DNA of 55,037 nt, from positions 1 through 55,037 of IMG/VR virus record IMGVR_UViG_3300032309_001623. One strand, written 5' to 3'. A program made the position numbers and the translations under genes. Below the pieces are notes generated by a model. It had not been told where the DNA came from and ran no database searches. It saw only the letters and a program-made list of their open reading frames with translations. Positions 1,125 to 24,645 of this stretch are shown in pieces (position 1 is the stretch's first letter; each line of letters opens with the position of its first letter). This DNA comes from a virus. Its lineage: Duplodnaviria; Caudoviricetes.

Positions 1125-1205
1125 AAATCCAACTGTGACCTTATGCTAAACCGTTGGCGTTTTCGCGGCCCACATTTTTAAAGTCGTCTGGGAACTGACT
1201 GAATT

Positions 1206-1280
1206 TGGAATAGGTGACAGGACTCGAACCTGCATTGAACGGATTTGCAATCCGACGCGTAGCCGTTCCGCCACACCTAC
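1206..1280 (-). tRNA. tRNA-Cys(GCA)
   Basis: Anticodon arm CGGA-TTGCAAA-TCCG, U73, encoded CCA. Confidence 0.95.
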
Positions 1281-1281
1281 A

Positions 1282-1642: not shown

Positions 1643-1643
1643 G

Positions 1644-2114
1644 TTAATTTGCAAGTACAAATTTTAATCGGTCAGCAGCATAGCTGGCGGCAAATGCTTT
1701 GGGCTTTACTTGCGCATCAATATTGCAAGTGCCTTTAATATAGCCAACTGCCTGTTGTACTACTAAACTAGACTTATACCGTTCTTGTGGATTAATGTCT
1801 AGGTGCACTTCAACGTGCCTATCTTCCAGCACATCCGCTAGTTCGTGAAATAGGTCTGACACTTTGTAAACTTCTTGCATTAAGCGCATTGATGGCTTAT
1901 CTGCTTTTTGGTCATAGTCACGCTCACGGTGAACATCACCAAAAATTTTACAGCCATGTTTGCCGTCAATGTGTACTACAATTGCCAGTGTATAGTCTGC
2001 GTACCATTTACCATGAATACTTACACGTTCTGAATCAGCACCAAGATAAATTTTGGTTTCTGGTGAACTTTGCCGAATGTAGTCTTTTACTTCATCAATG
2101 TTAAATTTACGCAT
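1644..2114 (-). CDS. RNase H-like YkuK family protein
   Basis: KIYLGADS...RLMQEV...EVHLDIN...KPKAFAASYAAD motifs. Confidence 0.8.
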   Translation of the reverse strand: MRKFNIDEVKDYIRQSSPETKIYLGADSERVSIHGKWYADYTLAIVVHIDGKHGCKIFGDVHRERDYDQKADKPSMRLMQEVYKVSDLFHELADVLEDRHVEVHLDINPQERYKSSLVVQQAVGYIKGTCNIDAQVKPKAFAASYAADRLKFVLAN

Positions 2115-2127
2115 AATTTTAATTGTT

Positions 2128-2204
2128 TGGTACGGCCTAAGAGATTCGAACTCCTAACCTCTAGATTCGTAGTCTAGTGCACTATCCAGTTGTGCTAAGG
2201 CCGT
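2128..2204 (-). tRNA. tRNA-Arg(ACG)
   Basis: Anticodon arm CTAGA-CTACGAA-TCTAG, CCA. Confidence 0.95.
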
Positions 2205-2207
2205 ATG

Positions 2208-2281
2208 TGGCAGAGGGTACAGGAATCGAACCTGTGACAAGGGAATCAAAATCCCGTGTGATACCATTTCACTAACCCCCA
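2208..2281 (-). tRNA. tRNA-Gln(UUG)
   Basis: Anticodon arm GGGA-TTTTGAT-TCCC, CCA. Confidence 0.95.
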
Positions 2282-2285
2282 ATAA

Positions 2286-2891
2286 TTATAATAAGTCTTT
2301 ACGATTTAGCCTTTTGGCTACCATCATATGTACTACGTCCCAATCTGAAAAACTTTGTGGCTCGTCATAACAATATTGTTTAACTCTGAATACATTACCG
2401 TTTACAACAGTTGCAGCGTACCAAGTTTCATAAGCGCCACGTCTAACTCCAAGATTGAAGTGCGCCTCTACTTGTGCAGGGTCTCCACCAAAATAGTAAT
2501 CTTCAAACGTGCTTGCTAAAGGTGGGTATGGTCTTCCGTATTCTTGCAAATTAGTGCCAACTGCAAGTACTTTGCAAAAATCAGGCAACCAACTAGGAGT
2601 TGTTTCGGCTAACTCATACTTGCGAAGAAAACTAGTCTTACTAGCCATACAAAATTTTCTAGCACCTATAGCAGCAGTTGGTCCAAATAGATTAGCAACT
2701 GCTGTTTTGGGGATATAAGCAGTTATTACATCTTCTTGTAAAACGGAATGAAATACTGGTTCTGATATACCATAGTAATCTTCTGCATTTACCCAGCTAA
2801 AACTAGCTTTAAGCGTCTCATAGACTTCTTCGTATTTAGGGCCAGCAGAGTGTAATTGGCGAGCTTCATCATCTACATAGTATACTTCCAC
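2286..2891 (-). CDS. Hypothetical protein of the fibre cassette
   Basis: 201-aa ORF abutting the upstream gene. Confidence 0.7.
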   Translation of the reverse strand: MEVYYVDDEARQLHSAGPKYEEVYETLKASFSWVNAEDYYGISEPVFHSVLQEDVITAYIPKTAVANLFGPTAAIGARKFCMASKTSFLRKYELAETTPSWLPDFCKVLAVGTNLQEYGRPYPPLASTFEDYYFGGDPAQVEAHFNLGVRRGAYETWYAATVVNGNVFRVKQYCYDEPQSFSDWDVVHMMVAKRLNRKDLL

Positions 2892-3101
2892 TTAAATCCA
2901 CCCTTCTTTGTCTAAAAGATTAAATACTTTTTCTTCTATATCCGCATCTGAGTATTCCGCGTCAACTACATACGTTGATTGCAAACCTCTATTAGAAACA
3001 GTTCTGTCGGGATTAACTATTGATTTTTTAACAGTAAAAAACACTGTTTTTGTTTTATCAGGGTTAATTCTTACAGCATCTATTGTAAAATTTTTAATCA
3101 T
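2892..3101 (-). CDS. Small hypothetical protein (possible fibre-associated chaperone)
   Basis: MIKNFTIDAV...; overlaps the stop of the 1022-aa gene; function inferred from position only. Confidence 0.6.
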   Translation of the reverse strand: MIKNFTIDAVRINPDKTKTVFFTVKKSIVNPDRTVSNRGLQSTYVVDAEYSDADIEEKVFNLLDKEGWI

Positions 3102-6100: not shown

Positions 6101-6162
6101 CTAGTATCTGAAGACACTAAAACTTGGTTATTATCATTTACTGCTTGAAATCCATAACTCAT
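3094..6162 (-). CDS. Receptor-binding/tail-fibre tip protein with a gp38-like glycine-rich adhesin domain and two repeated beta-domains
   Basis: N-terminus MSYGFQAVNDNNQVLVSSD and internal HGMIVYADDG..FDS typical of tail-tip proteins; GRGGDGG...GGGGGGGG...GGAPFG polyglycine motifs; GTAPNR...WEAQF occurs twice. Confidence 0.7.
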   Translation of the reverse strand: MSYGFQAVNDNNQVLVSSDTRNLHFIQKIAAPRNTVISATDPDAGVIYQSEYFGGIRHWRYTATCATTPVPFFTMPTSDYHAVVRVENKGNNRWDIELIRSGTSSTAVTYLYSTSEETSNNGVVSNSSITPYRYIPKFSYPYYGTLVSTQTPNQINQLVTYPNAELLGKGLTTAPLTGNNQNGYFTVNLPWAINIGNSYKDTVYISTESFITFDKGYSSKFDAFLLTPAGGYEATRINPAETWTVVDTGINVREALVAAGWDQQSAALFYIPERTLVTTKTKNSQALLIEGSFPGGLTIVNFGAIVGRGGDGGRGASYGSPAQAGETGGTAIRASTSFNLYSAGIITGGGGGGGGGGTGDNYSSGGGAGGAPFGLQGAGSYYIGGTAATAFEAGISPKSLDYNAIVGDGGDTGYGQDRWGYPGGNGGTWNNGGYPGTNGWIYGPGGGGYPGQAFVFTNGADVSNISTLNLSRFAPIGILVGSGRRYAYNVYTLTTGTAPNRIFVARYEGKRLTDTTATASRAPIVWEAQFRENDKNNIAINNGRNSSYSGGYPEIYIFADARASTATETHGMIVYADDGTPGFDSRLKPLAITGGTTVSHPANPKDSFGGGPAAIGRDCSAGDDVRGQIFVPQNYNTFVLSSANMSKPMYFYTSVAQSMRESVWYDDQETCTGIDVYGNCVGRQTNQSWYSHYWAFFRGAIAYNPTVYRASTMMFHPYPPAAATVGLTYTLTQQQNIVIDSYYNSSYWDGTYITVNSPNFTTYTTASSNYTPRTVPENIKGDDGYWEIPTPWPVRMTSDENADSSKLYSKLYVSTNSYITFGGGSTEYNGLNIPAYVPFPKIMICASDTSSNSVYTTLTGTAPNRKFILRFEGHLGNNIANTEIGDPSRAAERNIKWEAQFSENSPDTIAIKFDNNQTGQGYDRGQLFIGTATRTDTDFTTQLRASNGTVAPLLVVVGTTPGINAGWVPVTTGCWYSYNRSSALFGINTGGGYGSGGVWPYTNETLNLTNNTLITADASRYD

Positions 6163-6491
6163 CTCATTAACACCAATATAAAAGCTTTTTCAGAACCTCC
6201 GGTAACTTTAACACTACCACCGCCCAAACCAGTTGCACTATTATATGCTCCAGTATTGTTATAAGTAATTGTATGTGCTATAGCTCTGCGTGTAGTTGGA
6301 GGGGCATCAATCAAAATCTGTAAAACTAATACTTCTTTTCCTATAATAGTGGTATAGTTTTTTACAACAAAACTGCCATTTACAGAGGCAGTTACTTCAA
6401 AATAGTCTACTTGATTCCAAGTAACATCTGCACTTGAGTATATTAATTCTTGAGAACTATTATATACTGCTAAACCATGAGTTGTGGCCAT
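6159..6491 (-). CDS. Small tail-fibre-associated protein
   Basis: MATTHGLAVYNSSQELIYSS N-terminus; ATGA overlap with the downstream fibre gene; AAGGA RBS. Confidence 0.6.
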   Translation of the reverse strand: MATTHGLAVYNSSQELIYSSADVTWNQVDYFEVTASVNGSFVVKNYTTIIGKEVLVLQILIDAPPTTRRAIAHTITYNNTGAYNSATGLGGGSVKVTGGSEKAFILVLMR

Positions 6492-6662
6492 AGTAATCCT
6501 TTACTAAATTTTATAACTGTTCTACTGTGATTTTAAGAAGCTATATGCTTCACCTATGTCTATGTCTCAAGACAGTGTGTTTCGTGGACTTTGAAACGAT
6601 AGGCAGTTATTACCTTAGTAGATAGGCTCTGTCCTGATTTTCTTATTCACAGTTATAAAATT

Positions 6663-6738
6663 TGGCTCCCCAGCGTGGGATCGAACCACGGACACCTTGA
6701 TTAACAGTCAAGTGCAACTACCGCTGTGCTACTAGGGA
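6663..6738 (-). tRNA. tRNA-Asn(GUU)
   Basis: Anticodon arm CTTGA-CTGTTAA-TCAAG, CCA. Confidence 0.95.
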
Positions 6739-6746
6739 ATGTGTTT

Positions 6747-6902
6747 TTACCAATGTTTAATTACACCGGCAACGATAAAGCAGTTAGTTACTAAATAACT
6801 AACTACAATAATTGTTCTGATTATGGCGACTTTATCAGCCTGAGAGTCATCTCCTGCTTTTTCGCCTAGGGCTTTTGCCCACAATGTCCAATACTTTTTC
6901 AT
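6747..6902 (-). CDS. Small membrane protein
   Basis: MKKYWTLWAKALGEKAG...; C-terminal TM helix; start re-called downstream of tRNA-Asp. Confidence 0.65.
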   Translation of the reverse strand: MKKYWTLWAKALGEKAGDDSQADKVAIIRTIIVVSYLVTNCFIVAGVIKHW

Positions 6903-6905
6903 AAT

Positions 6906-6980
6906 TGGCGGTCTCAAGGGGTAACGATCCCCTTCTTTAGCAGTGACAGTGCTACGTGCGTCCATGAACACTTTGAGACC
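6906..6980 (-). tRNA. tRNA-Asp(GUC), non-canonical T-loop
   Basis: TAGCA-CTGTCAC-TGCTA; T-loop ATCGTTA; CCA. Confidence 0.9.
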
Positions 6981-6983
6981 AAT

Positions 6984-7067
6984 TGGTACGAGAGACGGGA
7001 CTCGAACCCGTATGCCTTGCGACGGCAGATTTTAAGTCTGCTGCGTATACCATTCCGCCACTCTCGC
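6984..7067 (-). tRNA. tRNA-Leu(UAA)
   Basis: GCAGA-CTTAAAA-TCTGC, long variable arm, CCA. Confidence 0.95.
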
Positions 7068-7075
7068 ATATATAC

Positions 7076-7168
7076 TGGTGGATTAGGTTGGATTCGAACC
7101 AACAATGTTTTCCCAGAGGGGACGGATTTACAGTCCGCCGATGCACACGCCATAGCATCAACTAATCC
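7076..7168 (-). tRNA. tRNA-Tyr(GUA)
   Basis: GCGGA-CTGTAAA-TCCGT, long variable arm, CCA. Confidence 0.92.
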
Positions 7169-7184
7169 AGTAATTTAATATATA

Positions 7185-7213
7185 ATTATATCAAAAAATG
7201 ACTGTTGAGTCAA
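7185..7213 (-). promoter_or_regulatory. Sigma70 promoter upstream of tRNA-Tyr
   Basis: TTGACT-N17-TATAAT. Confidence 0.75.
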
Positions 7214-7223
7214 ATTTAAAATT

Positions 7224-7297
7224 TGGCATCCCGAGAGGGACTCGAACCCCCACTTACAGTTTTGGAGACTGCAGTGCTGCCATTACACTATCGAGAT
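7224..7297 (-). tRNA. tRNA-Trp(CCA)
   Basis: GCAGT-CTCCAAA-ACTGT, CCA. Confidence 0.95.
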
Positions 7298-7304
7298 ATT
7301 TAAT

Positions 7305-7379
7305 TGGTGGACATAAGTAGATTCGAACTACTGACCTAAGCCGTATGAAGACTGTGCACTACCGCTGTGCTATATGTCC
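7305..7379 (-). tRNA. tRNA with CAU anticodon (Ile2 or elongator Met)
   Basis: AGTC-TTCATAC-GGCT, paired 1-72, CCA; identity cannot be resolved by eye. Confidence 0.85.
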
Positions 7380-7498
7380 TGGAATAGTTTTTGTGTGTCA
7401 GGATAACTATCAACCCCGTGAGAGCAGCCCATCTTGTTTTCGCTTCAGCGGACGCAGGACTATGGTATTAGCATAGATTTGTTTACAAGCCTGCAATT

Positions 7499-7575
7499 TG
7501 GTTGCGGAGGTTGGATTCGAACCAACGATTCTTGGCTTATGAGACCAAGCGGATAGACCACTTCCATACACCGCT
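7499..7575 (-). tRNA. tRNA-fMet-like (CAU)
   Basis: CTCATAA loop, A1-A72 mismatch, CCGCAACCA end. Confidence 0.88.
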
Positions 7576-7580
7576 ATATT

Positions 7581-7742
7581 TTAATAGCAACTGTTAAAGA
7601 GACGACGATTTTGATAGTTGTCCCAAATTTTTTCTAATCGCTGCACATCTTTGTGATCTACAGGATTAGCGTCGTTGATAAAGTCTTCCATCGTGTAAGG
7701 TTTCAACATTTCCTGTACACGCTGCATTAAGTCACTTAGCAT
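7581..7742 (-). CDS. Small hypothetical protein (53 aa)
   Basis: MLSDLMQRVQEMLKPYTMEDFINDANPVDHKDVQRLEKIWD...; overlaps the upstream stop. Confidence 0.6.
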   Translation of the reverse strand: MLSDLMQRVQEMLKPYTMEDFINDANPVDHKDVQRLEKIWDNYQNRRLFNSCY

Positions 7743-7956
7743 TTACAAAGCCGTACAATTCTTTAGCTTTAGCTACGACTTCTGAAAAATCATACATTTT
7801 AGGTGCATATTCTTGCCAATCTGATTGCACTTTTTGACCGGTAACTACTAGTTGGTCAAATACTTGCTTGGCAAAAGCTGTGTTGATTTCTTGTTGTTTT
7901 TCTAGGTACTCTGTAGCCATTTCCAGCATTTGAGTACGGATTTCAAATGGATTCAT
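7732..7956 (-). CDS. Hypothetical phage protein
   Basis: MNPFEIRTQMLEMA...; GGAGA RBS supports the start at 7956. Confidence 0.75.
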   Translation of the reverse strand: MNPFEIRTQMLEMATEYLEKQQEINTAFAKQVFDQLVVTGQKVQSDWQEYAPKMYDFSEVVAKAKELYGFVNAK

Positions 7957-8030
7957 ATAAATCTCCGTGTGTTGTGTGTGAAATAAAGGTCGCGTCTTTT
8001 TGAGCCTTAACACGACTATGGGGGCTAATA

Positions 8031-8234
8031 TTATTCTGATTTGCCTAAACGACCCATGTCGCCAGTATGGGTAACCCCATCGGCGACTACAATAGTTACT
8101 GGCATTAATTCAATACTTCCAGGTGCTAAATCACCTACGTCTGCTCCAGTTTTTGGGTCTTTGACTTCAGCATAGCCTTCGTCATAAGGTACACCCATTG
8201 CTGTTGGTTTTGCTTCTGATGCTTTTGTTTTCAT
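8031..8234 (-). CDS. Hypothetical protein
   Basis: 67-aa ORF with AAGG RBS. Confidence 0.6.
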   Translation of the reverse strand: MKTKASEAKPTAMGVPYDEGYAEVKDPKTGADVGDLAPGSIELMPVTIVVADGVTHTGDMGRLGKSE

Positions 8235-8242
8235 AAAATGCC

Positions 8243-8413
8243 TTATTTAGGGTATCTAGGGTACATACCTTTGCACATTGCACATTGGCAAGTTTCACAG
8301 TGGTATGGGTTCATGGGTTGACCAGGCATTACGTCTTTTGCTTCTGGCATTGGGCCATGTGGTCCAGGTGCAGGTTTAACAAATGCAAGTGGAGGTTTCT
8401 TCTTTGGTTTCAT
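8243..8413 (-). CDS. Small Pro/Cys-rich protein
   Basis: MKPKKKPP...CETCQCAMCKG; AAGGA RBS right after tRNA-Ile. Confidence 0.6.
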   Translation of the reverse strand: MKPKKKPPLAFVKPAPGPHGPMPEAKDVMPGQPMNPYHCETCQCAMCKGMYPRYPK

Positions 8414-8427
8414 AGGAATCCTTAACG

Positions 8428-8502
8428 TGGTATCCATGGACAATTTCGAAATGTCGGCCTAACGCTTATCAAGCGTTTGCTCTGCCTCTGAGCTACACGG
8501 AT
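8428..8502 (-). tRNA. tRNA-Ile(GAU), atypical T-stem
   Basis: ATCCGTG...AACGC-TTGATAA-GCGTT...GACAT-TTCGAAA-TTGTC-CATGGAT-ACCA. Confidence 0.88.
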
Positions 8503-8507
8503 ATAAT

Positions 8508-8582
8508 TGGTACTCCCGAACGGTTTCGATCCGTCTTTTCCGCCTTGAAAGGGCAGCGTCCTAGCCAGTAGACGACGGGAGC
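8508..8582 (-). tRNA. tRNA-Glu(UUC)
   Basis: CTGCC-CTTTCAA-GGCGG; T-loop ATCGAAA; CCA. Confidence 0.92.
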
Positions 8583-8591
8583 ATTATTTTT

Positions 8592-8667
8592 TGGTACCGA
8601 TGATTGGACTCGAACCAACCACACACAGATTTTCAGTCTGCTGCTCTACCTGATGAGCTACATCGGC
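8592..8667 (-). tRNA. tRNA-Phe(GAA)
   Basis: GCAGA-CTGAAAA-TCTGT, CCA. Confidence 0.95.
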
Positions 8668-8883
8668 TTAAAATGCTGGATTCTGTTCTTGCCAAGCTAA
8701 AGACTCAAGTTCACCACAATCTGTACGCCAAGCGCATTGTGATAACATCATAGTAGAGCAATCATCAAAACCCCAACAATGCGGAGGTTCTTGACCTCTC
8801 ATTGATTTAATTTGTTGCAGTATGTAGTAGCGTCGGTTGCTGAGGTTGGCTTCTTTATTTAGCAAAGTTTGTATTTCAGTCAT
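8668..8883 (-). CDS. Small Cys-containing hypothetical protein
   Basis: 71 aa, CWGFDDCS...C...C; preceded by a TTGAAA...TATAAT promoter. Confidence 0.65.
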   Translation of the reverse strand: MTEIQTLLNKEANLSNRRYYILQQIKSMRGQEPPHCWGFDDCSTMMLSQCAWRTDCGELESLAWQEQNPAF

Positions 8884-8928
8884 AATTATACCAGATTTTA
8901 AAACTTATTTCAAGCCTAAAAATAGCTG

Positions 8929-9004
8929 AGGGGTGACCACTGGGAATCGAACCCAGACTAAAAGAATCACAATCTCGGGTGCTAACCGTTACACTATGGC
9001 CACA
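8929..9004 (-). tRNA. tRNA-His(GUG); T at -1, 3' end reads CCT rather than CCA
   Basis: GTGGCCA/TGGTCAC acceptor stem, C73, TTGTGAT loop. Confidence 0.85.
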
Positions 9005-9010
9005 CCTAAG

Positions 9011-9214
9011 CTATTTTGTGCAATTAAAACATACACAACTTGGGTCGTGCCAAGGTTTGTTTGGTTGAGCTGGAACAGGATTTTCACTTGGCGTTTGCTT
9101 ATCATTGATATGAATAGCTGCAGCCGCTGCTTTACAAGCAGCTAAAGTATCGAACTGACAGTTGCCATGTTCGCCATATTTCCATTTACCGTTAGCACAC
9201 TTCATGCAAGGCAT
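9011..9214 (-). CDS. Small Cys-rich protein
   Basis: MPCMKCANGKWKYGEHGNC...CVCFNC; AAAGGA RBS; start re-called outside tRNA-Ser. Confidence 0.65.
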   Translation of the reverse strand: MPCMKCANGKWKYGEHGNCQFDTLAACKAAAAAIHINDKQTPSENPVPAQPNKPWHDPSCVCFNCTK

Positions 9215-9230
9215 AAAATTCCTTTGTTTG

Positions 9231-9318
9231 TGGCGGAAGTAGTAGGATTCGAACCTACGCGCCAATTTCTCAACGACAGTTTAGCAAACTGCTGGTTTAA
9301 CCACTCACCCATACTTCC
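9231..9318 (-). tRNA. tRNA-Ser(GCU)
   Basis: GCAGT-TTGCTAA-ACTGT, long variable arm, CCA. Confidence 0.95.
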
Positions 9319-9447
9319 GTTAAATACCATATAGAAACACTTTCAATATCAGTTCAATGCTGGCACAAAGAACCTTTCGCAGCTGCCAGGCTACCGAATA
9401 TTGGCCGCATATATTCGCAGTTACTATTCGTCAAAAATGTTTTTATA

Positions 9448-9522
9448 TGGTAGACGCACAGAGAATCGAACTCTGATTTGTAGGTTAAAAGCCCACTACT
9501 TTAGCCGTTAAGTTATACGTCC
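9448..9522 (-). tRNA. tRNA-Lys(UUU)
   Basis: GTGGG-CTTTTAA-CCTAC, CCA. Confidence 0.92.
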
Positions 9523-9523
9523 A

Positions 9524-9649
9524 TTAACCGTCCCAACCTTCTCGGTTGAGTTTTCCGCGCAATTGCTTGTGCGATTTTTTATGTGAACCACTGCCGTTAC
9601 GCTTCATTAAAGCGACTACAACATGGTTCCGAGGTTTTCGTGTTTTCAT
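9524..9649 (-). CDS. 41-aa highly basic peptide (possibly ribosome-associated)
   Basis: MKTRKPRNHVVVALMKRNGSGSHKKSHKQLRGKLNREGWDG*, TAAGGA RBS. Confidence 0.65.
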   Translation of the reverse strand: MKTRKPRNHVVVALMKRNGSGSHKKSHKQLRGKLNREGWDG

Positions 9650-9665
9650 AATTATCCTTAAAAAT

Positions 9666-9740
9666 TGGTGGACCGAGGGAGGATCGAACTCCCACCCGAG
9701 GCTTGCAAAGCCACTGTGCTCCCATTATCACTATCAGCCC
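9666..9740 (-). tRNA. tRNA-Ala(UGC)
   Basis: TTTGCAA loop, G3-U70, CCA. Confidence 0.93.
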
Positions 9741-9922
9741 ATTTTAGATTATGTACTGTTTACTACCCAAGCCGCTAAGCCTGTGATCTTGACTTACCAG
9801 GTTCATGACACCCGCCTATATCAAAATTCATATTATACCCTGTAAGTTTCCTAGGACATACAGGTCTCAAATATGCAAAACCCCGAAACTGAATCGGTGT
9901 TCGAGCAGTACATAAACTAAAA

Positions 9923-9996
9923 TGGTCTCGGTGGCAAGAATCGAACTTGCGCTACATGGTCCCAAACCACGGGTGATACCATTTCACTACACCGAG
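9923..9996 (-). tRNA. tRNA-Pro(UGG)
   Basis: CGTGG-TTTGGGA-CCATG, CCA. Confidence 0.95.
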
Positions 9997-10069
9997 ATTT
10001 CATCCGCCTTGCTTGAAGTGTGCTGCCCAATATTAGGGATGTACTAGTATTGGGCAGCATAAGCGGGAC

Positions 10070-11068
10070 TTAGTTTAAAAATGTGGCAACAGCCAAGTTT
10101 TTTTCTTTTGATTCACACATTATATCTGCAACAGGACTAAATGTCAAGGCCCATTTATTTACTGCTTGATTCCAGTAGTAGTCTGAATGAGCACGAAGTT
10201 TAGTTGAGGTAAACCCCATAGACTTTAGCTGAGCTAGATCAGGTTTTGTAGCAGGGTCGTGATCTATAAGCACATCTTCGCGGGACACTGAGTAGTGAAT
10301 AACTGGTCGAACACCACGCCATGACTCTACTACAGATTTTACTCTATCATCATCAGGTTCAATGTACTCGCCTGTGGCAATCCAGTGGTGATGAATGTCT
10401 AAGACTAAGGCACAGTCAAGCATCAACTCTAGCGATGCATCAAGACCCCAGGTATACTCAGCATTTTCAATAGTCAAGCAATTACGCGCTTCAGGACTCA
10501 GCTTTTTTAGAGCAGCTTGAATTCCATTAGGTCCGCGCTTACCGCCGATATGTACGTTACACTTAAAGTCTTGAAACTTTTTGCCATAGCCCATATATCT
10601 GATAAGGTCACAGTGGTACTCAAACTCAAGAATACTGCGATCAACAATTCCATCATTCTCACTCGCTAAAACACAAAATTGACCTGGATGAAACGATAAA
10701 CGCACATCTAGGCTACGGGCTAGGTCACCAATCTTGCTGAGATTGGTTTCTAGAAATTGTACTACATCTGACTGAAAGTAAAACCACATCCAGTCATCGT
10801 GGGTGTAAGCGGTCAAGAGATCACTAGATATACGAAACATTCTAAGATTTGGATCTCGACCGCCTACCCACACAATTTGGTTACGAAGGGCATCAATGTT
10901 ATGACGCATCAAGTCCCAAAGACGAGCACACGCTACGTCTTTGGATTGTTTGTTGAGCCATGTGATAGTTGTTGCTTTTGTGTTCAGTTTAGGGTCAGCT
11001 ACACCTTCGGACTTTTGAATCTTACAGGCAAAGCCAACTCTGTTAATTTCTTGGTTAAATGTGTGCAT
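10070..11068 (-). CDS. uvsE: UV-damage endonuclease UvsE/UvdE
   Basis: RVGFACK, MFRISSDL, VRLSFHPGQF, LTIEN, LVLDIHHHW, RAHSDY, DIMCESKEKN motifs. Confidence 0.92.
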   Translation of the reverse strand: MHTFNQEINRVGFACKIQKSEGVADPKLNTKATTITWLNKQSKDVACARLWDLMRHNIDALRNQIVWVGGRDPNLRMFRISSDLLTAYTHDDWMWFYFQSDVVQFLETNLSKIGDLARSLDVRLSFHPGQFCVLASENDGIVDRSILEFEYHCDLIRYMGYGKKFQDFKCNVHIGGKRGPNGIQAALKKLSPEARNCLTIENAEYTWGLDASLELMLDCALVLDIHHHWIATGEYIEPDDDRVKSVVESWRGVRPVIHYSVSREDVLIDHDPATKPDLAQLKSMGFTSTKLRAHSDYYWNQAVNKWALTFSPVADIMCESKEKNLAVATFLN

Positions 11069-11069
11069 T

Positions 11070-11429
11070 TTATTGCCAGGTTCTGTGTGCTTCAGCAACG
11101 TGCTCAAGACCATCATACTCTACAATATGCCAGTCTATGTCGTCAGGAATATCAACAATTTTAATACTGGCATAGTGCCCATTAGCAGCTTCGCCCAGGT
11201 GTTCAATAACTGCAATCAAGTCAGGGTCATTGCGCTGCTGATAGAACTCGTAAGAATTAATATAAGTAGCGTCTGAGTGTGGACGGCCTGCTAGGTAATA
11301 GTCACTACCTCTCCAGGCTTTTTCAGTGTCTACTACCTCAAATGCAATGCCTTTACGTGCAAGCAGCGCTTCAAACGCTTGATCGCTAATGCTAAATCCG
11401 CCAAAATCTGTGTTAATTGCTATTTTCAT
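11070..11429 (-). CDS. Hypothetical phage protein
   Basis: KIAINTDFGGFSIS...RNDPDLIAVIE...IVEYDGLEHVAEAHRTW. Confidence 0.8.
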   Translation of the reverse strand: MKIAINTDFGGFSISDQAFEALLARKGIAFEVVDTEKAWRGSDYYLAGRPHSDATYINSYEFYQQRNDPDLIAVIEHLGEAANGHYASIKIVDIPDDIDWHIVEYDGLEHVAEAHRTWQ

Positions 11430-11450
11430 TTTGTGTGTGCTTTAGTTATG

Positions 11451-11534
11451 TGGTACCCCAGAGGAGACTCGAACTCCTACGCCTTGCGACATTGGCTTCT
11501 AAGACCAACGTGTCTACCATTCCACCACCAGGGC
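11451..11534 (-). tRNA. tRNA-Leu(UAG)
   Basis: TTGGT-CTTAGAA-GCCAA, variable arm, CCA. Confidence 0.95.
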
Positions 11535-11551
11535 TTTAATTATATATTATA

Positions 11552-11881
11552 CTATGAAACAACAATGTTGTCAATACTCAAAATCTTAATAGTTACATCG
11601 CCGCGTTCTTCAGCTTGTTTTAGCCAATTTGCTAAAACACCTTGCATTAGTGAACTCATGTGATAGTTGTTGGCATGACAGCGGTATGTGCTGCCTGAAT
11701 AGCCGTCAAACTCAAACCACTCGCCTTCTTTGCGTGTAACAGTAATTCCTGAGTTAAGTTTCCAACTATTTGATCCAGCAAAACCGCCATACCAACCAGC
11801 AAATACTTTGCGTAAAGGAAGGTCATATTGTGGAGCGTCAAATTCCAAGACAACCCAAACATCGGGTGTATAGGTACTCAT
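11552..11881 (-). CDS. Hypothetical phage protein
   Basis: YTPDVWVV...AGWYGGFAGSNSWKLNSG...GYSGSTYRC. Confidence 0.8.
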   Translation of the reverse strand: MSTYTPDVWVVLEFDAPQYDLPLRKVFAGWYGGFAGSNSWKLNSGITVTRKEGEWFEFDGYSGSTYRCHANNYHMSSLMQGVLANWLKQAEERGDVTIKILSIDNIVVS

Positions 11882-12075
11882 AGTGTTGCTTTGTAAGTTT
11901 TAATAGCGTCTGCATCAAGTGATGCATACACACGAAATTTGTCTCTGCCAACTCGGTCGTACAAGTCTGTGGCAAGTTTTTCAAGATGCTCTAGGCTTTC
12001 AACTGTGATTAGTGTACACGCCACATAACGACTCATAAAAGCATCAATTAAAAATTCTTTGGTATATCCTGCCAT
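11878..12075 (-). CDS. Hypothetical protein
   Basis: GGAGA RBS, ATGA overlap with the next gene. Confidence 0.7.
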   Translation of the reverse strand: MAGYTKEFLIDAFMSRYVACTLITVESLEHLEKLATDLYDRVGRDKFRVYASLDADAIKTYKATL

Positions 12076-12141
12076 ATTATTTCTCCAAATGAGTTATTAT
12101 TATAACCCATTCAGAGACTTAACACAAGCCTATATTTATAG

Positions 12142-12216
12142 TGGTCCGGCCTACAGGAATCGAACCCATATTCACGGTGTAGAAGACCGCTGTATTATCC
12201 ATTATACTAAGGCCGG
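12142..12216 (-). tRNA. tRNA-Arg(UCU)
   Basis: GCGGT-CTTCTAC-ACCGT, CCA. Confidence 0.92.
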
Positions 12217-19872: not shown

Positions 19873-20102
19873 GTTTAATTTTAGCTCGTCAAGCAGGCTT
19901 TAAAATAGACGACATGGGTAATGTTAGTCTCAACGATGAGTGGTGTACTATTGAAGTAGAGCTTTTAATTCAACTAGTGGCAGGCTGGTGTCTAGAAAAG
20001 AATCGTAGGCACCTTTTTAGTTATCAAGCCACTAAAGAGATTCTTAACGACTTTGGCTACAACAATGTAGACCCTAAGCCTGATCAAATGAGGCCCGTGT
20101 GA
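19857..20102 (+). CDS. Hypothetical protein
   Basis: Operon-packed ORF. Confidence 0.6.
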   Translation: MDDKLSLILARQAGFKIDDMGNVSLNDEWCTIEVELLIQLVAGWCLEKNRRHLFSYQATKEILNDFGYNNVDPKPDQMRPV

Positions 20103-20296
20103 TTACAGAACACAACAGCTACTATGGTGTTAGAAAAACCAGAACTAATTTTTTACACAACCAAGAGCCTTATATACAAGTTATAGTACACAAAATATAC
20201 TACTGTGACCTGTGTGAACGATATATAACAAACCAAATATTAGCTCAAAACCACGACAGGGAACAACATGAAAACACCAATGCAAGAACTACTTGA
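20099..20296 (+). CDS. Small C2H2-like zinc-binding protein
   Basis: YYCDLCE...H...H. Confidence 0.55.
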   Translation: MITEHNSYYGVRKTRTNFLHNQEPYIQVIVHKIYYCDLCERYITNQILAQNHDREQHENTNARTT

Positions 20297-20627
20297 ATAC
20301 AATCGTGAAGAACCCCTAGACCCCATAGCAAAACAACCAGTTCCAGAAACTAAGCTAAAGGCTAAAAATCACCGAGAACTGGTAACGCAGTGGCTCTTAG
20401 ACAAGCTGCAAGAAGAGTCAGCTGAAGTTATTCAGGCGATAAGCAAAGTCCGCAGGTTTGGTGAACAAAACCACCACCCTGACAGAAAAACTACTAATTT
20501 ACAGGAACTTGTCACAGAACTGGAAGATTTCTTGGCAATTGTTGCGAGTCTAGAGCACCTACAATACTTTGATCTCACAAAACATCAAGCCAACATCTTA
20601 AAGAAAACGCAAGCTTTGATCTCTTAA
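20268..20627 (+). CDS. MazG-like nucleotide pyrophosphohydrolase
   Basis: LQEESAEVIQAISKVRRFG...LVTELEDFLA (EExxE...ExxD). Confidence 0.75.
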   Translation: MKTPMQELLEYNREEPLDPIAKQPVPETKLKAKNHRELVTQWLLDKLQEESAEVIQAISKVRRFGEQNHHPDRKTTNLQELVTELEDFLAIVASLEHLQYFDLTKHQANILKKTQALIS

Positions 20628-20691
20628 CGAAAAATACACTTGCCACCAATTTGCTTGATGTGATATAATTTAGTATAAATTGATAAAGTTT

Positions 20692-20827
20692 AAGACTAGA
20701 CACTTTGAGTGGTTGCACTAAAACACACAAATATGTCGTTCAGGGAGAACTTGTTCCTTGGGGACCCTGCAAGACGACATAATTTTTGTAGGTTTAGGGT
20801 CAAACACAATCAAAGTAGGCTGGTCTT
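20692..20827 (+). other. ~135-nt imperfect rod-like hairpin in a promoter-driven 5' leader
   Basis: AAGACTAG/CTGGTCTT, ACTTTGA/TCAAAGT, TATGTCGT/ACGACATA, CAGGG/CCCTG; TTGCCA-N18-TATAAT at 20640-20669. Confidence 0.7.
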
Positions 20828-20857
20828 CAAGCCATTGGACAACTACGAGCTAAAAAT

Positions 20858-21640
20858 ATGCTAACACTAAAGAAATTACACATCGAAGAATTACCACTTA
20901 AACTCATTGCCACAATGACCGAAACTGAGTTGGAGGACTTTGCCCAAAAAAATTCGCTTAATCGCATGGGATCGTGGCTTTTGCCCCAACTTGTGGCGGC
21001 TTTTGGTAGTTGGCGGCTTATCTTAGTGGATAACAAGATAGATGTAAAACAGACCCTAAAGCACAACTGTGAGCACAGTTTGGCGGCTCAGGCAATGTGG
21101 AGACTTAGTAGAATCGCACGTACTTGTCTTTTAACCAAGCAGATAGCAATGGCAGAGTATGCTGTACTCACTCCACTAGTCCTAGCAGGATTTAAACGTA
21201 TGCAGGGTGTCAGCTATGAGAGCTGGAGAAATTGTGAAAACTTGGACTATGTGCTAGAACCCCGTTTATATGAAGCGGTTTGTGTAGATGTACCCACTTT
21301 AGGGTCGGAAAGATTATTAGAAATTAGACAACAGGGGCTAATGACCCGTAGTGGCAAAAGTGCAGGCCAGCTAAAAAATGCAGAAACTACTTGGAGTTTG
21401 AATGGAATATCAGATACTGAGTTGGGACACCTACCCAAACTTACCCAATCCATAATGACACAAATCTGGCTAGCACATCCGGTTCACAGACATAACCTGA
21501 TGATTTTAGACCCCACAAATTGGGATCACATGCCAGATCCACTAATTGCACCAACAATATTTAAGCAACCTGTTAAAGAATCCGCTGCATTAGAAGAAAC
21601 ACCAAAAGAAACAACAAAAACCTTATTACCCTGGATGTAA
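20858..21640 (+). CDS. Hypothetical early protein (260 aa)
   Basis: Long ORF with C-terminal MILDPTNWD motif; no function recognised. Confidence 0.75.
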   Translation: MLTLKKLHIEELPLKLIATMTETELEDFAQKNSLNRMGSWLLPQLVAAFGSWRLILVDNKIDVKQTLKHNCEHSLAAQAMWRLSRIARTCLLTKQIAMAEYAVLTPLVLAGFKRMQGVSYESWRNCENLDYVLEPRLYEAVCVDVPTLGSERLLEIRQQGLMTRSGKSAGQLKNAETTWSLNGISDTELGHLPKLTQSIMTQIWLAHPVHRHNLMILDPTNWDHMPDPLIAPTIFKQPVKESAALEETPKETTKTLLPWM

Positions 21641-21641
21641 C

Positions 21642-21959
21642 ATGAAGTACACCAAAGAAATCACTGACCGTATTATAGCTGACTACAAGGCTAAGGTGCC
21701 AGTTAAAGACATTGCTACTGCAATTGACGTGCCTGAAAGATCAGTTATAGCAAAATTAAGCTCGCTTGGAGTTTACGAGAAAAAAACTTATGTTAACAAG
21801 CGAGGTGAGCTCCCAGTGAAAAAATCCGAGCATATTGACAGGATTGCAGAATTGCTGGAGGTGAGCTCAGAGACCCTAGAATCGCTGGAAAAGGTAAATA
21901 AAGGGGTACTCAAGTTAATTGAACTTAAATTGACTGAAGCTGACCCTAAACCAGAATAA
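21642..21959 (+). CDS. T5 A2-like DNA-binding protein, paralogue 1
   Basis: YT.E.T...IA..I....RSVIAKLS..GVY..K...KK.....IA....LESLEK pattern shared with T5 A2 as recalled. Confidence 0.75.
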   Translation: MKYTKEITDRIIADYKAKVPVKDIATAIDVPERSVIAKLSSLGVYEKKTYVNKRGELPVKKSEHIDRIAELLEVSSETLESLEKVNKGVLKLIELKLTEADPKPE

Positions 21960-21977
21960 TTGCCCTAATTTAGCTTA

Positions 21978-22010
21978 AGCCCACATTCGGTGACGTTTGT
22001 GGGCTTTTTT
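21978..22010 (+). terminator. Intrinsic terminator
   Basis: AAGCCCACA...TGTGGGCTT followed by a T run. Confidence 0.8.
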
Positions 22011-22181
22011 GCGCTTATTAAAGAACACTTTAATATGGGCTGGGTTAAATTAAACATTTCTTTAATAGTGGTGATTGTGGCGGTTTAGGGTCAGAACAAG
22101 AAAACTCACTTGACAAAGTTAGTTGGCCACTATATAATTGGCGCAGGCACGTCAGTTTTTTCTGTGGTGATTCTGACGGGC

Positions 22182-22219
22182 AAAACAAAGCCCCCTGATC
22201 TGCCGATGAGGGGGCTTTG
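22182..22219 (-). terminator. Intrinsic terminator of the large non-coding transcript
   Basis: CAAAGCCCCCT...AGGGGGCTTTG followed by TTTT on the minus strand. Confidence 0.8.
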
Positions 22220-22707
22220 AAAAGACTGCGTCTAGAATCGTCTGTTTTTTTTTGTGCTCACATCACGACTCAGACTGCCAAGAACCACTTGGACTTACTG
22301 CGTGACCCTAAACCACAGTGACCTGACCAGCTGCGTGAGGTTATGCATGCTGCGCTTTAGTGGAAGGGAAGACTTAATACCTAGTCCACACTAGGATTTA
22401 TATCGGTTTGCGGCCGGTGGAAATAAATGCCTCTGGAGTTTTACGACATACTGTGGCTTAGGGTCGGTTTCTTACAGTTGCCTCTGACTGGACATATTTA
22501 CGAACCCGCCTCAGCTTAGGGTCGAGCCCGTCAGTGGGCTAATCTACCAAGAATATTTAACGTGTATACCAGATAGCACGGCATGGGATATAGGGTCGGC
22601 TCCCTAGGGTTACTCTTTACCACAGCACTACTAAGTTTCAGGGGGTCGCTGCATCAGCCGAAGCTCAACAGACCACCCCTTCCAGTTTTCGTGTTTGTGG
22701 GATTCGT

Positions 22708-22803
22708 CCTGACCCTAAGTCGCACCAGCGGTTCCGTGGGAGTAGAACGCACACTGGTACAGACACTTAGAGTTTCGCTGAAATTGCATCAGCTCGTCAG
22801 AGG
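22708..22803 (-). ncRNA. Hammerhead ribozyme (type I topology)
   Basis: CCT-CTGACGA-GCTGA(TGCAATT)TCAGC-GAAA-CTCTAAGT...ACTTAGGG-TC-AGG; GUC triplet; predicted cut between 22711 and 22710; stem I only 3 bp. Confidence 0.8.
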
Positions 22804-23023
22804 GTTAAGGTGGGCGGTGTGTAGCTTCTCACACCATCAAGTTGTTATCCTACTGTAATTTCGGTCGCATAACACCCAAATTCGTTTGCTAAGGGCTGTG
22901 GCTCGGTTTAAATTTCCCACAATTAAGACGTATCTTCATAAGCAGTAATATATCGCCGAAGACCGCTGTCACCCTGTCTAATCTATATAATAATTATACA
23001 GTAAATAAGCTGCACATTCAAGT

Positions 23024-23164
23024 AAAAAATAACAGTCGTTGCCACTATGATCTAACTTCGCAGGTGTGTCGACATACAGTGACTGGTTAGTGCGCAAAGA
23101 GATCGCTGACAAACGGGCGGCTGGGTTTTCTCAGTCATTCATTAAGCCCTTCCCGACTGTTTAT
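23024..23164 (-). ncRNA. Putative ~135-nt structured RNA
   Basis: Promoter TTGATC-N17-TATAAT (23199-23171); closing stem AACAGTCG/CGACTGTT followed by a U-rich tail. Confidence 0.6.
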
Positions 23165-23225
23165 AAATAAATTATACAGTAATTAGGGTCATTGATCAAG
23201 TTAAGATTTTCTGACCCTAAATTGG

Positions 23226-23534
23226 TCAAACCAAACGGTTTGCCAACAGCTCGAGGGCTTCGTGGGTAGCTTTCTCCAAGCTCTCCAACACTTCCTCGCT
23301 TGCGCCCACTTTGAGGGCAATCACTGCAACCAGCTGAGCCTTGGTCACACGAGCGCCAGCAGCCTTGCTTTTGGCTTTGTAAACGCCCTCACGAGAGAGT
23401 TTGGCAACCACGCTGCGAGTGGTCTTGCCCAACTGGGTAGCCAAAGCTTCCACAGTTTCGCCAGCTTGGTAGCCGGCAACGAGAGCCTGGGTTTGCTCGG
23501 GGGTATAGTTGGTTTTGGTAGCTTCAGTCATCAT
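23226..23534 (-). CDS. T5 A2-like DNA-binding protein, paralogue 2
   Basis: NYTPEQT...GKTTRSVVAKLSREGVYKAK...LESLEKA; GAAAGGA RBS; TTGACG-N17-TATAAT. Confidence 0.8.
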   Translation of the reverse strand: MMTEATKTNYTPEQTQALVAGYQAGETVEALATQLGKTTRSVVAKLSREGVYKAKSKAAGARVTKAQLVAVIALKVGASEEVLESLEKATHEALELLANRLV

Positions 23535-23581
23535 ATGTCCTTTCAATTGGTTTCTGCGCTGTTTAAAGAATAATTATATCA

Positions 23582-23716
23582 CTACAAGGGCACATCGTCA
23601 AATTCAAAAATGTTGTCGTGTACGTGGATAGCAGGAAGATTTTTGGATAGTTCGGATTCCATGAATTCTGCAAACCACTGCTCCTGATCTAAGCTGAAAA
23701 ATTCGGTGTCTGTCAT
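23582..23716 (-). CDS. 44-aa acidic peptide ending FEFDDVPL
   Basis: MTDTEFFSLDQEQWFAEFMESELSKNLPAIHVHDNIFEFDDVPL*; TTGAAA...TATAAT promoter and AGGGAA RBS upstream. Confidence 0.5.
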   Translation of the reverse strand: MTDTEFFSLDQEQWFAEFMESELSKNLPAIHVHDNIFEFDDVPL

Positions 23717-23871
23717 GAGCCGTTCCCTGTCATCAATAAATAAATTATACAGAAATCAAAAAAAGTTTTCAAATCCAAATTTTTGCACTTGGCCTTACAC
23801 TCACCGGCAGAAAAATTCACTTGACACATAAAGGTTTTGCACTATATAATGGGCGCAGGGAGGTCAAACCC

Positions 23872-23952
23872 CCAAGAATTTACACTTGCTTTTCCACTGG
23901 CGCAGCCTGGAGAACTACCAAGAATTTACACTAGCTTTTCCACTGGCGCAGC
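23872..23952 (+). repeat. 35-bp direct repeat, 2 copies
   Basis: CCAAGAATTTACACT(T/A)GCTTTTCCACTGGCGCAGC at 23872 and 23918, 1 mismatch. Confidence 0.9.
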
Positions 23953-24005
23953 GCGGAGCGCTGTAGTACTAAAGTACTCAATTTCACAATGTGAAATTTA
24001 CCCTG

Positions 24006-24092: not shown

Positions 24093-24318
24093 GGTTGCAG
24101 AAAAACAACATAGGGGAAAACACCTACAAAAAAGTTCTTGACACCGGCTCCAAAATTGTGGTATAATTTTGGCGCAAATAACCCTACTGGCTGTAGGGTT
24201 ATTAAGCTAAAAAATAACCCTGCGCTGGGCAGGGTTATAAAAAATATGCTAGGGGGATTTTCACCCCCATTCCCGATTAAAAAATCGGATATTAAAAATT
24301 ATATGATAGCATATTTTT

Positions 24319-24645
24319 TTAAACTGGCTTAGAGTTTGCCAGTGCTTCGAAAATTGCTTTCAAAGCCGATTTGTTCGCTTTTGTGAGCGATTCAATATCA
24401 TTCTCAGGCAAGCGGAGAATTGCGCCGATTGCATCGGCGTGAGCGTCTTTTTTGACGACAGGCTCACCAGTTTTGGAAACATACGTTTTTGCAACGTAGA
24501 CTTTTTCGCGTGACAGTTTTGCAACCACCGAGCGAACAGTTTTACCGAGATTTTCGGCGATAGTTTCAACCGAAACACCAGCCGAATAATCGGCTACCAT
24601 TTGAGCAGTTTGCTCAATGGTATAATTGACAGTTTTTGTAGCCAT
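24319..24645 (-). CDS. T5 A2-like DNA-binding protein, paralogue 3
   Basis: VNYTIEQTAQMVADY...GKTVRSVVAKLSREKVY; TTGACA-N17-TATAAT upstream. Confidence 0.8.
   Translation of the reverse strand: MATKTVNYTIEQTAQMVADYSAGVSVETIAENLGKTVRSVVAKLSREKVYVAKTYVSKTGEPVVKKDAHADAIGAILRLPENDIESLTKANKSALKAIFEALANSKPV

Follow-up and report, generated by a model that had tools for sequence, protein, structure and literature searches.

GOLLD and ROOL are phage-borne RNAs of more than 500 nucleotides (nt), with several multistem junctions and an association with transfer RNAs (tRNAs) (Weinberg et al., 2017, PMC5737381). Hammerhead ribozymes of phages and prophages, described from positions between protein genes, likely cut long phage transcripts into defined pieces (Perreault et al., 2011, PMC3088659), and theta (HDV-like) ribozymes next to the tRNAs of gut phages have been proposed to process tRNA trailers (PMC10879173). 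Here we describe an RNA gene of ~805 nt (22182..22986, minus strand) in a 55,037-nt stretch of viral DNA (IMG/VR record IMGVR_UViG_3300032309_001623; this whole stretch is called the window, and all coordinates are positions in it). It represents a family, undescribed until now, of large phage RNAs that are modular and contain a hammerhead ribozyme, and it is located among genes that resemble A2 of phage T5. From sequence comparison, we put at about 70% the probability that it would encode a modular self-cleaving precursor of stable early phage RNAs, with its own sigma-70 promoter and terminator, in an uncultured freshwater clade of T5-like phages. The source record is linear and estimated to be 52% complete. 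Its PHROG matches include terminase, portal, head protease/major head, thymidylate synthase and a D5-like regulator; among cultured phages, the most similar portal proteins are those of T5-like phages (37-39% identity).

The likeness to GOLLD and ROOL is one of context rather than membership. All are large multi-junction phage RNAs near tRNAs, but there is no similarity in sequence or model, and the RNA described here has a self-cleaving ribozyme and, in some phages, embedded tRNAs. It also differs in residing in virulent-type T5-like contigs, with one contig found in the genomes of 185,579 species. The ribozyme shares its catalytic core and three-stem junction with the phage and prophage hammerheads reported by Perreault et al. 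(2011, PMC3088659), but lies inside a large non-coding RNA and not between protein genes. As described for theta ribozymes, a small self-cleaving ribozyme can be found right beside a phage tRNA, suggesting ribozyme-assisted processing; the ribozyme class and cleavage side differ, however, the tRNA here is tRNA-Glu(UUC) and not a suppressor, and most members are without a tRNA (PMC10879173). Known hammerheads also differ from this one in that its stem III carries an insert of ~45 nt, its stem I is open and only 3-5 base pairs (bp) long, and it goes undetected by Rfam models. CsrB and RsmZ are protein-sequestering RNAs with repeated hairpin-loop motifs, in which the loop motif is GGA. The 3′ part of the RNA described here likewise has several hairpins with one short loop motif in variable copy number, a resemblance only, given that the motif is CCUAA rather than GGA and no partner protein is known.

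Searches for known relatives support the novelty that a preliminary sequence-only reading of this DNA had proposed. At the gathering score, Rfam models matched the window 21 times, all outside the RNA: one transfer-messenger RNA (tmRNA) locus, hit by two overlapping models, and 19 tRNAs. Relaxing the threshold to E<=10 on 1.6 kb gave only chance-level matches on the terminator and no GOLLD, ROOL or antitoxin model. Membership of a known RNA family was rejected on these scans and a 151-nt search, in which the only matches were sub-threshold and fell by chance on the terminator. A blastn search with 1 kb of the locus found no match in 50,697 phage records. Literature searches found no paper describing such an RNA, which is not proof of absence; the main text of Fremin et al. 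(2023, PMC10690425) leaves hammerheads unmentioned and reports candidates averaging 67 nt, and its supplementary lists could contain pieces of the large RNA.

The RNA gene and its hammerhead ribozyme

The RNA contains a type I hammerhead (22706..22805, minus strand). Hammerheads have a consensus core of CUGANGA on one strand and GAA on the other. On the minus strand of the window, CUGACGA occupies 22800-22794 and GAA 22776-22774; stem II pairs 22793-22789 with 22781-22777, the 8-bp stem III pairs 22773-22766 with 22719-22712, and stem I pairs 22803-22801 with 22710-22708. The alignment places the predicted self-cleavage site at GUC↓A, 3′ of C22711 (22710..22711). Covariation was measured here and throughout on MAFFT alignments that were not fitted to any structure. 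The hammerhead alignment comprised 33 sequences, from 20 nt before the core to 20 nt past the cut, and left out truncated variants and three with a long stem II insert. Core columns 21-24, 26-27 and 45-48 (CUGA-GA and GAAA) are invariant in 33/33, the G10.1-C11.1 pair closing stem II is G-C in all 33, the A15.1-U16.1 pair is A-U in 32/33, and the residue before the cut is C in 32 rows and A in one (L052). The 18 pairs are formed in 86.5% of cells, vs 21.8-43.5% when the 3′ partners are slid by 1-3 columns. Both-side changes occur in 11 of the 18, and the observed covariation score was reached by 0/500 shuffles, a control that overstates significance among related sequences such as these, for which the slid comparison is the fairer one. 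One stem II pair, for example, appears as U-A in 12 sequences, A-U in 11 and C-G in 7, and the adjacent pair as G-C in 12, C-G in 11 and U-A in 6. Run without guidance, RNAalifold predicts the three stems and their junction. Pair 50-122 is U-G in 17 sequences and C-G in 15, and such G-U pairs fix the minus strand as the one that folds. The embedded hammerhead suggested by the sequence-only reading thus has an invariant catalytic core and three covarying stems, and the predicted cut would give a 5′ product of ~276 nt and a 3′ product of ~528 nt, close to the ~275 and ~530 nt anticipated there.

A by-eye comparison of loop II with the flanks of stem I, aimed at a pseudoknot or other contact, found no consistent covariation. 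The relatives L073, L085 (= L003) and L104 have a stem II insert of 65-82 nt that contains a module with the repeated 8-mer GACCCTAA, which is taken up below. Action of the ribozyme in trans on genome-wide UUAGGGUC sites was considered and rejected: stem III differs in relatives (e.g., CUGGGGGUC), while the motif copies are constant.

Upstream of the hammerhead, two further parts of the RNA show compensatory changes. The 5′ three-way junction (22893..22974, minus strand) consists of a helix P1 (GGGU/GCCC), a variable hairpin closed by GCG/CGU, and a hairpin P2 (UGUGG/CCACA) with a variable tip. The alignment has 44 sequences and 16 predicted pairs. Both sides have changed at all four pairs of the variable hairpin (in 24, 23, 8 and 5 sequences, respectively); the rest of the core, paired and unpaired, is invariant, partly as a retrieval effect, since part of hairpin P2 belongs to the pattern by which sequences were retrieved. 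The second three-way junction (22812..22877, minus strand) is built from a closing helix UGGGU/GCCCA, a long arm whose internal loop is conserved, a joiner UUGAU (UUAAU in most homologues) and a 6-bp hairpin. Its 18 pairs are formed in 92.6% of cells over 34 sequences, vs 28-57% in slid controls, and 15 of them have both-side changes (143 cells vs 33.8 in shuffles). A tRNA-like identity was rejected for this element, which has three helices and not four; ARAGORN found 0 genes in the window's RNA, and no Rfam tRNA match falls in 22182-22986. Together with the hammerhead and hairpins in the 3′ half, four separate parts therefore carry compensatory changes, in agreement with the earlier claim of a large structured RNA. 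The long-range helix TTGTGGGA/TCCCACAA named in that claim fared less well: both arms are present in the window, but the 3′ arm is unconserved and the 5′ arm is used instead in the invariant local hairpin UGUGG/CCACA, and the helix was discarded.

Promoter P2 (TTGAAT-17-TATAAT, 22993..23021, minus strand) matches the consensus at 10/12 positions and would place the transcription start near 22986. Its hexamers and spacing are kept in those homologues that have the 5′ domain (alignment A1, made of 12 gap sequences), and its -10 region is one of three copies of a common 24-nt sequence; promoter-like sites in 21500-24000 number 9 vs 3.5 +/- 1.9 in shuffles. The intrinsic terminator (22182..22219, minus strand) is a G+C-rich hairpin at 22219-22186, with 15-nt arms that are 93% complementary, followed by UUUU. 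Five of 10 stem pairs have both-side changes in 30 homologues; a simple promoter/terminator scan did not list the element because the T-run is too short for its rule. Between these signals the longest minus-strand open reading frames (ORFs) within 22182-22986 are 30-33 amino acids (aa), and a plus-strand ORF of 91 aa (22583-22858) had no match in PHROG or Pfam. ORFs in the homologous gaps vary in position and strand between loci, and a coding region was ruled out, no ORF being conserved. The G+C content is 0.46-0.52 over 22050-22949, against 0.40-0.42 on the flanks and 0.26-0.37 farther out. Promoter, terminator, raised G+C content and lack of a minus-strand ORF over ~800 nt all agree with what had been read from the sequence at the outset, and the smaller pairings listed then (ACGGGCUCG/CGGGUUCGU, a UUCG-capped arm and CCTAGT/ACTAGG) are found in the sequence.

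Relatives were collected by two routes. With the upstream helix-turn-helix (HTH) gene (23226-23546, minus strand), 46 IMG/VR loci were fetched. In all 19 loci inspected the HTH gene is followed by 1.0-1.5 kb in which no ORF is consistent, then by an HTH paralogue in convergent orientation and a gene of 255-341 aa, the last being 227 aa in one locus at a contig end. A search with nhmmer, proposed in advance as a check, matched the RNA region in that gap in 20/47 loci searched. Alignment A1 showed invariant blocks, and two of them, both in the 5′ domain, served as the retrieval pattern. Scanning IMG/VR with this pattern gave 56 further loci, or 57 with the window, in 46 distinct sequences; because retrieval went through the 5′ domain, the other parts of the RNA are unbiased by it. 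Covariance model R1, built from the hammerhead alignment, matches 50/56 of the pattern-derived and 21/46 of the HTH-derived loci, and among the HTH-derived loci without a match several are truncated at a contig end or only distantly related; model R2 detects the 5′ domain in HTH-derived loci. Across the genomes of the 185,579 species mentioned above, the pattern occurs in one 2.9-kb contig of a Saccharibacteria metagenome-assembled genome, probably a mis-binned phage fragment, and the family is accordingly assigned to phages not seen as prophages. The 100-kb IMG/VR contig of L080 and L096 carries the RNA gene twice, close to either end and in the same orientation; the copies are not alike and differ by a large insert.

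Modular architecture and readings of the whole RNA

Comparison of the variants shows that the parts of this RNA can be separated. ARAGORN finds a tRNA-Glu(UUC) embedded in 14/46 variants, after the second junction in 13 and before it in one (L097), and in 7 of the 14 the CCA end lies 5-7 nt from the ribozyme core. The RNA is without a tRNA in the other 32 variants, among them the window, whose tRNA-Glu(UUC) lies in the main tRNA cluster (8508-8582). In L060 and L068 an internal TTGAAT-17-TATAAT promoter separates the tRNA from the hammerhead, so that the halves can be transcribed apart. Six variants (L064, L071, L089, L098, L103 and L105) have the 5′ three-way junction and no hammerhead; two of them (L098 and L103) reach a terminator after ~430 nt and have a different middle domain. 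Large optional inserts stand between domains in some variants. Because its parts are separable, a processed modular precursor ranks above an RNA that functions only as a whole, although the pieces may reassemble.

That latter possibility is the alternative that survives best. The RNA could be an integral giant RNA of the GOLLD/ROOL kind, in which the halves stay together, or cleavage is held off or regulated, and the molecule acts whole, possibly as a multimer. GOLLD and ROOL form multimers; a cryo-electron microscopy preprint deals with these RNAs (10.1101/2024.12.08.627333). Conserved loops such as YUAUCYKGUAYM in the 3′ domain suggest tertiary or intermolecular contacts, and a size above 500 nt, multistem junctions, carriage by phages and a tie to tRNAs are traits held in common with those RNAs (PMC5737381). 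We nevertheless regard this reading as unlikely. No GOLLD or ROOL model matches; a limited by-eye search found no covarying pairing between the halves; and the interposed tRNA, the internal promoter and the loss of the ribozyme half argue against an obligatory covalent or structural unity.

A second alternative takes its lead from the embedded tRNAs: the gene would be a cassette for tRNA expression and processing, in which the hammerhead cuts tRNA-containing precursors, and the window's copy would be a tRNA-less remnant. Besides the tRNA variants and their close spacing to the ribozyme, this reading is favoured by L026, in which 4947-5339 holds two exact tandem units of tRNA-Glu plus hammerhead, the predicted cut falling ~10 nt before the next tRNA. 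Stem I of these units has just 2-3 pairs and could be extended by the acceptor strands of the neighbouring tRNAs. Some loci adjoin a tRNA/tmRNA array, and theta ribozymes near phage tRNAs offer a precedent as proposed trailer processors (PMC10879173). The prevalence of tRNA-less variants counts against such a cassette, as does the behaviour of the junction domains and the 3′ domain, which covary and persist irrespective of a tRNA. Moreover, cleavage by a type I hammerhead falls on the 3′ side of the ribozyme, so that ~125 nt would stay attached to the upstream tRNA and no tRNA 3′ end is made. We judge the cassette quite unlikely as an account of the family.

Two observations on translation RNAs stand apart from this question. 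The window has a permuted two-piece tmRNA of the betaproteobacterial type (138-587, minus strand; tag ANDSQFALAA), which forms a large translation-RNA set with 21 tRNA genes at 1050-12216 and hints that the host may be a betaproteobacterium. In the relative L068 a tmRNA of the same permuted type lies within 8 kb of the large RNA.

The 3′ domain, its repeated motif and the neighbouring genes

The 3′ domain (22183..22710, minus strand) is modular, and it measures 355-783 nt in homologues whose terminator was found. Two of its hairpins could be counted. The first, UAGGG-loop-CCCUA (22591..22606, minus strand), is 94.8% paired, with both-side changes at two pairs in 10 and 8 sequences; the second (22561..22580, minus strand), a 4-bp hairpin whose 12-nt loop has the consensus YUAUCYKGUAYM, is 91.8% paired with both-side changes in 4/4 pairs. 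Jointly they are 93.5% paired vs 27-52% in slid controls, and 6/9 pairs changed on both sides. Repeat modules follow, 1-5 per RNA, each with a short stem, a CCUAA loop and a UUAAAA tail, and their copy number differs between relatives. In the window, module 1 (22495..22531, minus strand) is a hairpin with CCCUAA in its loop, then UAAAU, with a motif copy at 22516-22523, and module 2 (22439..22466, minus strand) reads CGAC, CCUAA loop, GUCG, then UAAAA. The module stems appear by eye to change in step (CGAC/GUCG, CCACC/GGUGG, CAACC/GGUUG, CGCC/GGCG); a scripted test of their covariation picked up too many non-module sites to be usable as support. Farther on, the UUUAGGGUC element and its flank (22304..22319, minus strand) precede a helix UCACG/CGUGA, misaligned by MAFFT, which by eye also covaries (UCAAG/CUUGA, UCAGG/CCUGA and CAAUG/CGUUG in relatives).

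Module 2 and the UUUAGGGUC element supply the 5′ and 3′ arms of the other long-range helix that the sequence-only reading had singled out, a 15-bp pairing of 22466-22452 with 22318-22304. Its complementarity is real (16 nt, 94%), the minimum free energy fold uses it, and most relatives have a pairing potential of 13-17 bp between a module and the UUUAGGGUC element. Covariation of its flanks is absent: over 23 distinct flanks, cognate arms pair at 6.35 of 9 positions and non-cognate arms at 6.38 of 9 (permutation p = 0.84). Both arms follow one extended consensus. Flanks thus pair no better with their own partner than with those of other genomes, and it was rejected as a covarying RNA helix. 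It amounts to two inverted copies of the GACCCTAA motif, joining a module to the copy near the 3′ end.

This 8-mer has 18 copies in the window vs 1.1 expected, a 16-fold excess that 0/100 shuffles reach, and 12 of the copies lie within 20070-23220. Four are in the RNA: in the two repeat modules, on the 3′ strand of stem III and near the 3′ end. Outside the RNA the extended consensus recurs at two promoters, P1 and a convergent one on the plus strand, 16-18 nt upstream of their -35 hexamers, and two copies of the 8-mer in inverted orientation bracket the -35 of P1. To some extent at least, the motif is therefore a DNA-level signal. It is probably a protein-binding site and likely an operator of the A2-like proteins.

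On this basis the locus might be mainly a DNA element, that is, a cluster of A2-like binding sites with secondary RNA features; it could serve as an array of operators or iterons, or correspond to the untranslated repeat region and injection stop signal (iss) of T5. Besides the motif excess, its placement upstream of two conserved promoters and the helix without flank covariation, the reading can draw on contig ends: in 8/46 relatives, including contigs of 29-52 kb, the contig stops inside the RNA locus, no more than 1 kb past the HTH gene. This clustering is ambiguous and could reflect a repeat boundary or strain-level variation in a modular locus; in T5 the iss lies at the inner edge of a terminal repeat. 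T5 itself (NC_005859) has 1.8 kb without coding sequences between convergent units, holding the annotated iss, and its repeat-rich untranslated region is reported to be more conserved than the nearby ORFs (Davison, bioRxiv 10.1101/866236). Like that region (Untranslated Repeat Region 3/iss), the locus is a ~1.2-1.8 kb gene-free stretch between convergent units, near A2-type genes and with many direct and inverted repeats. The T5 region differs in being read in that preprint as a DNA signal with paired DnaA boxes (TTWTNCACA; bioRxiv 10.1101/866236), whereas no DnaA box occurs in 22000-23300 (4 in the window vs 9.8 expected). Models R1 and R2 matched nothing in NC_005859 4000-12500, and the T5 gene-free stretch gave no Rfam match near the gathering score and no excess of promoter-like sites (6 vs 5.7 in shuffles). 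The T5 iss region was accordingly rejected as a homologue, and the two resemble each other only in position. No function at the DNA level explains the compensatory changes, G-U pairs included, of four parts, nor the complete ribozyme, the promoter and the terminator, and a role mainly as DNA is very unlikely; a DNA role of the motif copies may coexist with the RNA.

The same motif underlies a further proposal, that the 3′ RNA is a protein sponge or decoy, whose CCCUAA-loop hairpins and motif duplex titrate a phage or host protein, possibly an A2-like one. Its appeal lies in the 1-5 modules per RNA, their variable copy number and stems that seem by eye to change in step, and in the occurrence of the motif at the sites upstream of promoters. 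The automated test of the module stems is too noisy to count as support, however, and to our knowledge HTH proteins are not binders of RNA hairpins; we think the sponge as improbable as a mainly DNA-level role. We have no greater faith in a combined version, in which the gene-free stretch at the place of T5 iss would encode a self-cleaving RNA whose 3′ product (CCCUAA hairpins and motif duplex) decoys A2-like proteins and so times the switch from pre-early to early genes or the second step of DNA entry. A last proposal turns to type III toxin-antitoxin systems, the antitoxin of which the tandem modules would mimic to evade host abortive infection. Phages are known to carry such pseudo-antitoxin repeats, and in some relatives (L052) the modules repeat with a ~39-nt period and A-rich tails, but the idea is scarcely credible when no Rfam antitoxin family matches, the modules are not tandem in most variants, including the window, and no toxin gene is found among the neighbours (HTH, MazG-like, SprT-like, HAD-like).

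The genes around the RNA account for the comparison with A2. The HTH gene directly upstream (23226..23546, minus strand; phrog_1725, phrog_323) has paralogues at 24319-24645 (minus strand) and 21642-21959 (plus strand), and these three small proteins form one family. Its profile aligns with T5 A2 over 102 columns at 31% identity (hhalign probability 84%, E 7e-6), which sustains the initial description of the flanking genes as A2-like; tblastn of the HTH protein vs phage records found no match. MazG-like, SprT-like and HAD-like proteins are encoded nearby. Between the HTH gene and the large RNA lies a second unit (23024..23199, minus strand), comprising promoter P1 (TTGATC-17-TATAAT, 23199..23171) and a structured small RNA of ~135 nt (23163..23024) that ends in a 7-bp closing stem and a U-run. 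This small RNA is found in part of the relatives, and 14/24 predicted pairs have both-side changes in 12 sequences. From the other side, the convergent promoter (TTGACA-17-TATAAT, 22084..22138, plus strand) matches the consensus at 12/12 positions, with TTTAGGGTCAG (22084-22094) 16 nt upstream of its -35; the promoter and motif columns are invariant in A1 (12 relatives), and a further TTTAGGGTCAG site is at 23211-23221. Transcription from this promoter would run across the terminator, antisense to the 3′ end of the large RNA. A second copy of this promoter, with the same start region TATAAT..GGCGCAGG, is at 23821-23850, and another was seen by eye near 24130-24180.

Three features of the surroundings are recorded for completeness. 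Just downstream of the 23821-23850 promoter, between two A2-like genes, two tandem 46-nt repeats (23867-23958, plus strand) are 89% identical, and a near-identical hairpin pair occupies 24176-24241. A 260-aa protein (20858-21640, plus strand) is encoded beside the locus in all relatives inspected, and its gene holds two motif copies. It has a confident AlphaFold model (predicted local distance difference test, pLDDT, 85.2), no PHROG or Pfam match, no fold match in the PDB at E<=0.001 and nothing usable from the protein atlas, and thus gives no hint on the RNA.

Proposed expression, function and significance

Under the preferred reading, a modular self-cleaving precursor, the host sigma-70 RNA polymerase would transcribe the RNA from its own promoter to its own terminator, giving a primary transcript of ~805 nt in the window and 0.6-1.4 kb in relatives. 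The precursor would consist of independently folding parts: the 5′ junction, the second junction, tRNA-Glu in some phages, the hammerhead, and a 3′ domain with 1-5 modules. By analogy with other hammerheads, cleavage 3′ of C22711 should leave a 2′,3′-cyclic phosphate on the ~276-nt 5′ RNA, which would keep the ribozyme, and a 5′-hydroxyl at the start of the ~528-nt 3′ RNA. One promoter would in this way yield two stable RNAs, or three or more with a tRNA, and the new ends would be poor substrates for host decay enzymes. The conservation, the folds, and the ribozyme core and stems are observed across the alignments; transcription, cleavage, end chemistry, product stability and early timing are inferred. 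Very early expression is suggested by the quality and position of the promoter. As to function, our best guess, weakly held, is an early set of host-takeover or regulatory RNAs linked to the A2-like DNA-binding proteins and to tRNA supply.

Public sequencing data hint weakly at an abundance of RNAs related to the 3′ product. Twenty runs match part of the stretch, three of them freshwater metatranscriptomes from three studies. Their three contigs (245, 215 and 303 nt; 92-96% identical) lie wholly within the 3′ domain (22249-22685), and the rest of 21600-23700 is represented in these three runs by just one 42-nt piece (23537-23578) in a flanking A2-like gene. Apart from one study, the matching runs hold small shares, and the parts left uncovered prove nothing.

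Several points weigh against the precursor reading. The metatranscriptome data are assembled contigs that could include DNA, and they show neither strand, ends nor level. The fold energy of the whole RNA is only a modest signal (z = -2.11; 0/20 shuffles fold as well), and with a single-sequence fold just modestly above shuffles the question is settled by the comparative data, whose shuffle controls are in turn inflated by relatedness. The hammerhead had no Rfam match at the gathering score on the window, at E<=10 on 1.6 kb or in the 151-nt search, which its long stem III insert and short open stem I may explain. That stem has 3 bp in the window and 3-5 bp in relatives, three pairs being constant and pairs 17-129 and 16-130 forming in 15/33 and 9/33 sequences, and being so short it may need contacts for fast cleavage. 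Finally, the 15-bp helix is without flank covariation, and the motif copies of the 3′ domain also act, or at least occur, at the DNA level beyond the gene. The sequence-only reading nonetheless proves largely right about a large novel RNA, its ribozyme architecture and its A2-like flanks; its two long-range helices go unsupported by comparison.

Very few large multi-domain RNAs of bacteria and phages are known, and each has opened new biology. To these the present family adds an RNA of 0.6-1.4 kb, with at least four parts supported by covariation and absent from Rfam. Its natural hammerhead, housed in a non-coding RNA and often joined head-to-tail to a tRNA, provides a testable model for ribozyme-made stable RNAs and for natural tRNA-ribozyme cassettes, and because the hammerhead escapes all current Rfam models, its alignment would improve the detection of ribozymes in viral metagenomes. 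The family also connects structured RNA with the pre-early region around the A2-type genes in T5-like phages, whose conserved untranslated DNA has been read purely as a signal at the DNA level.

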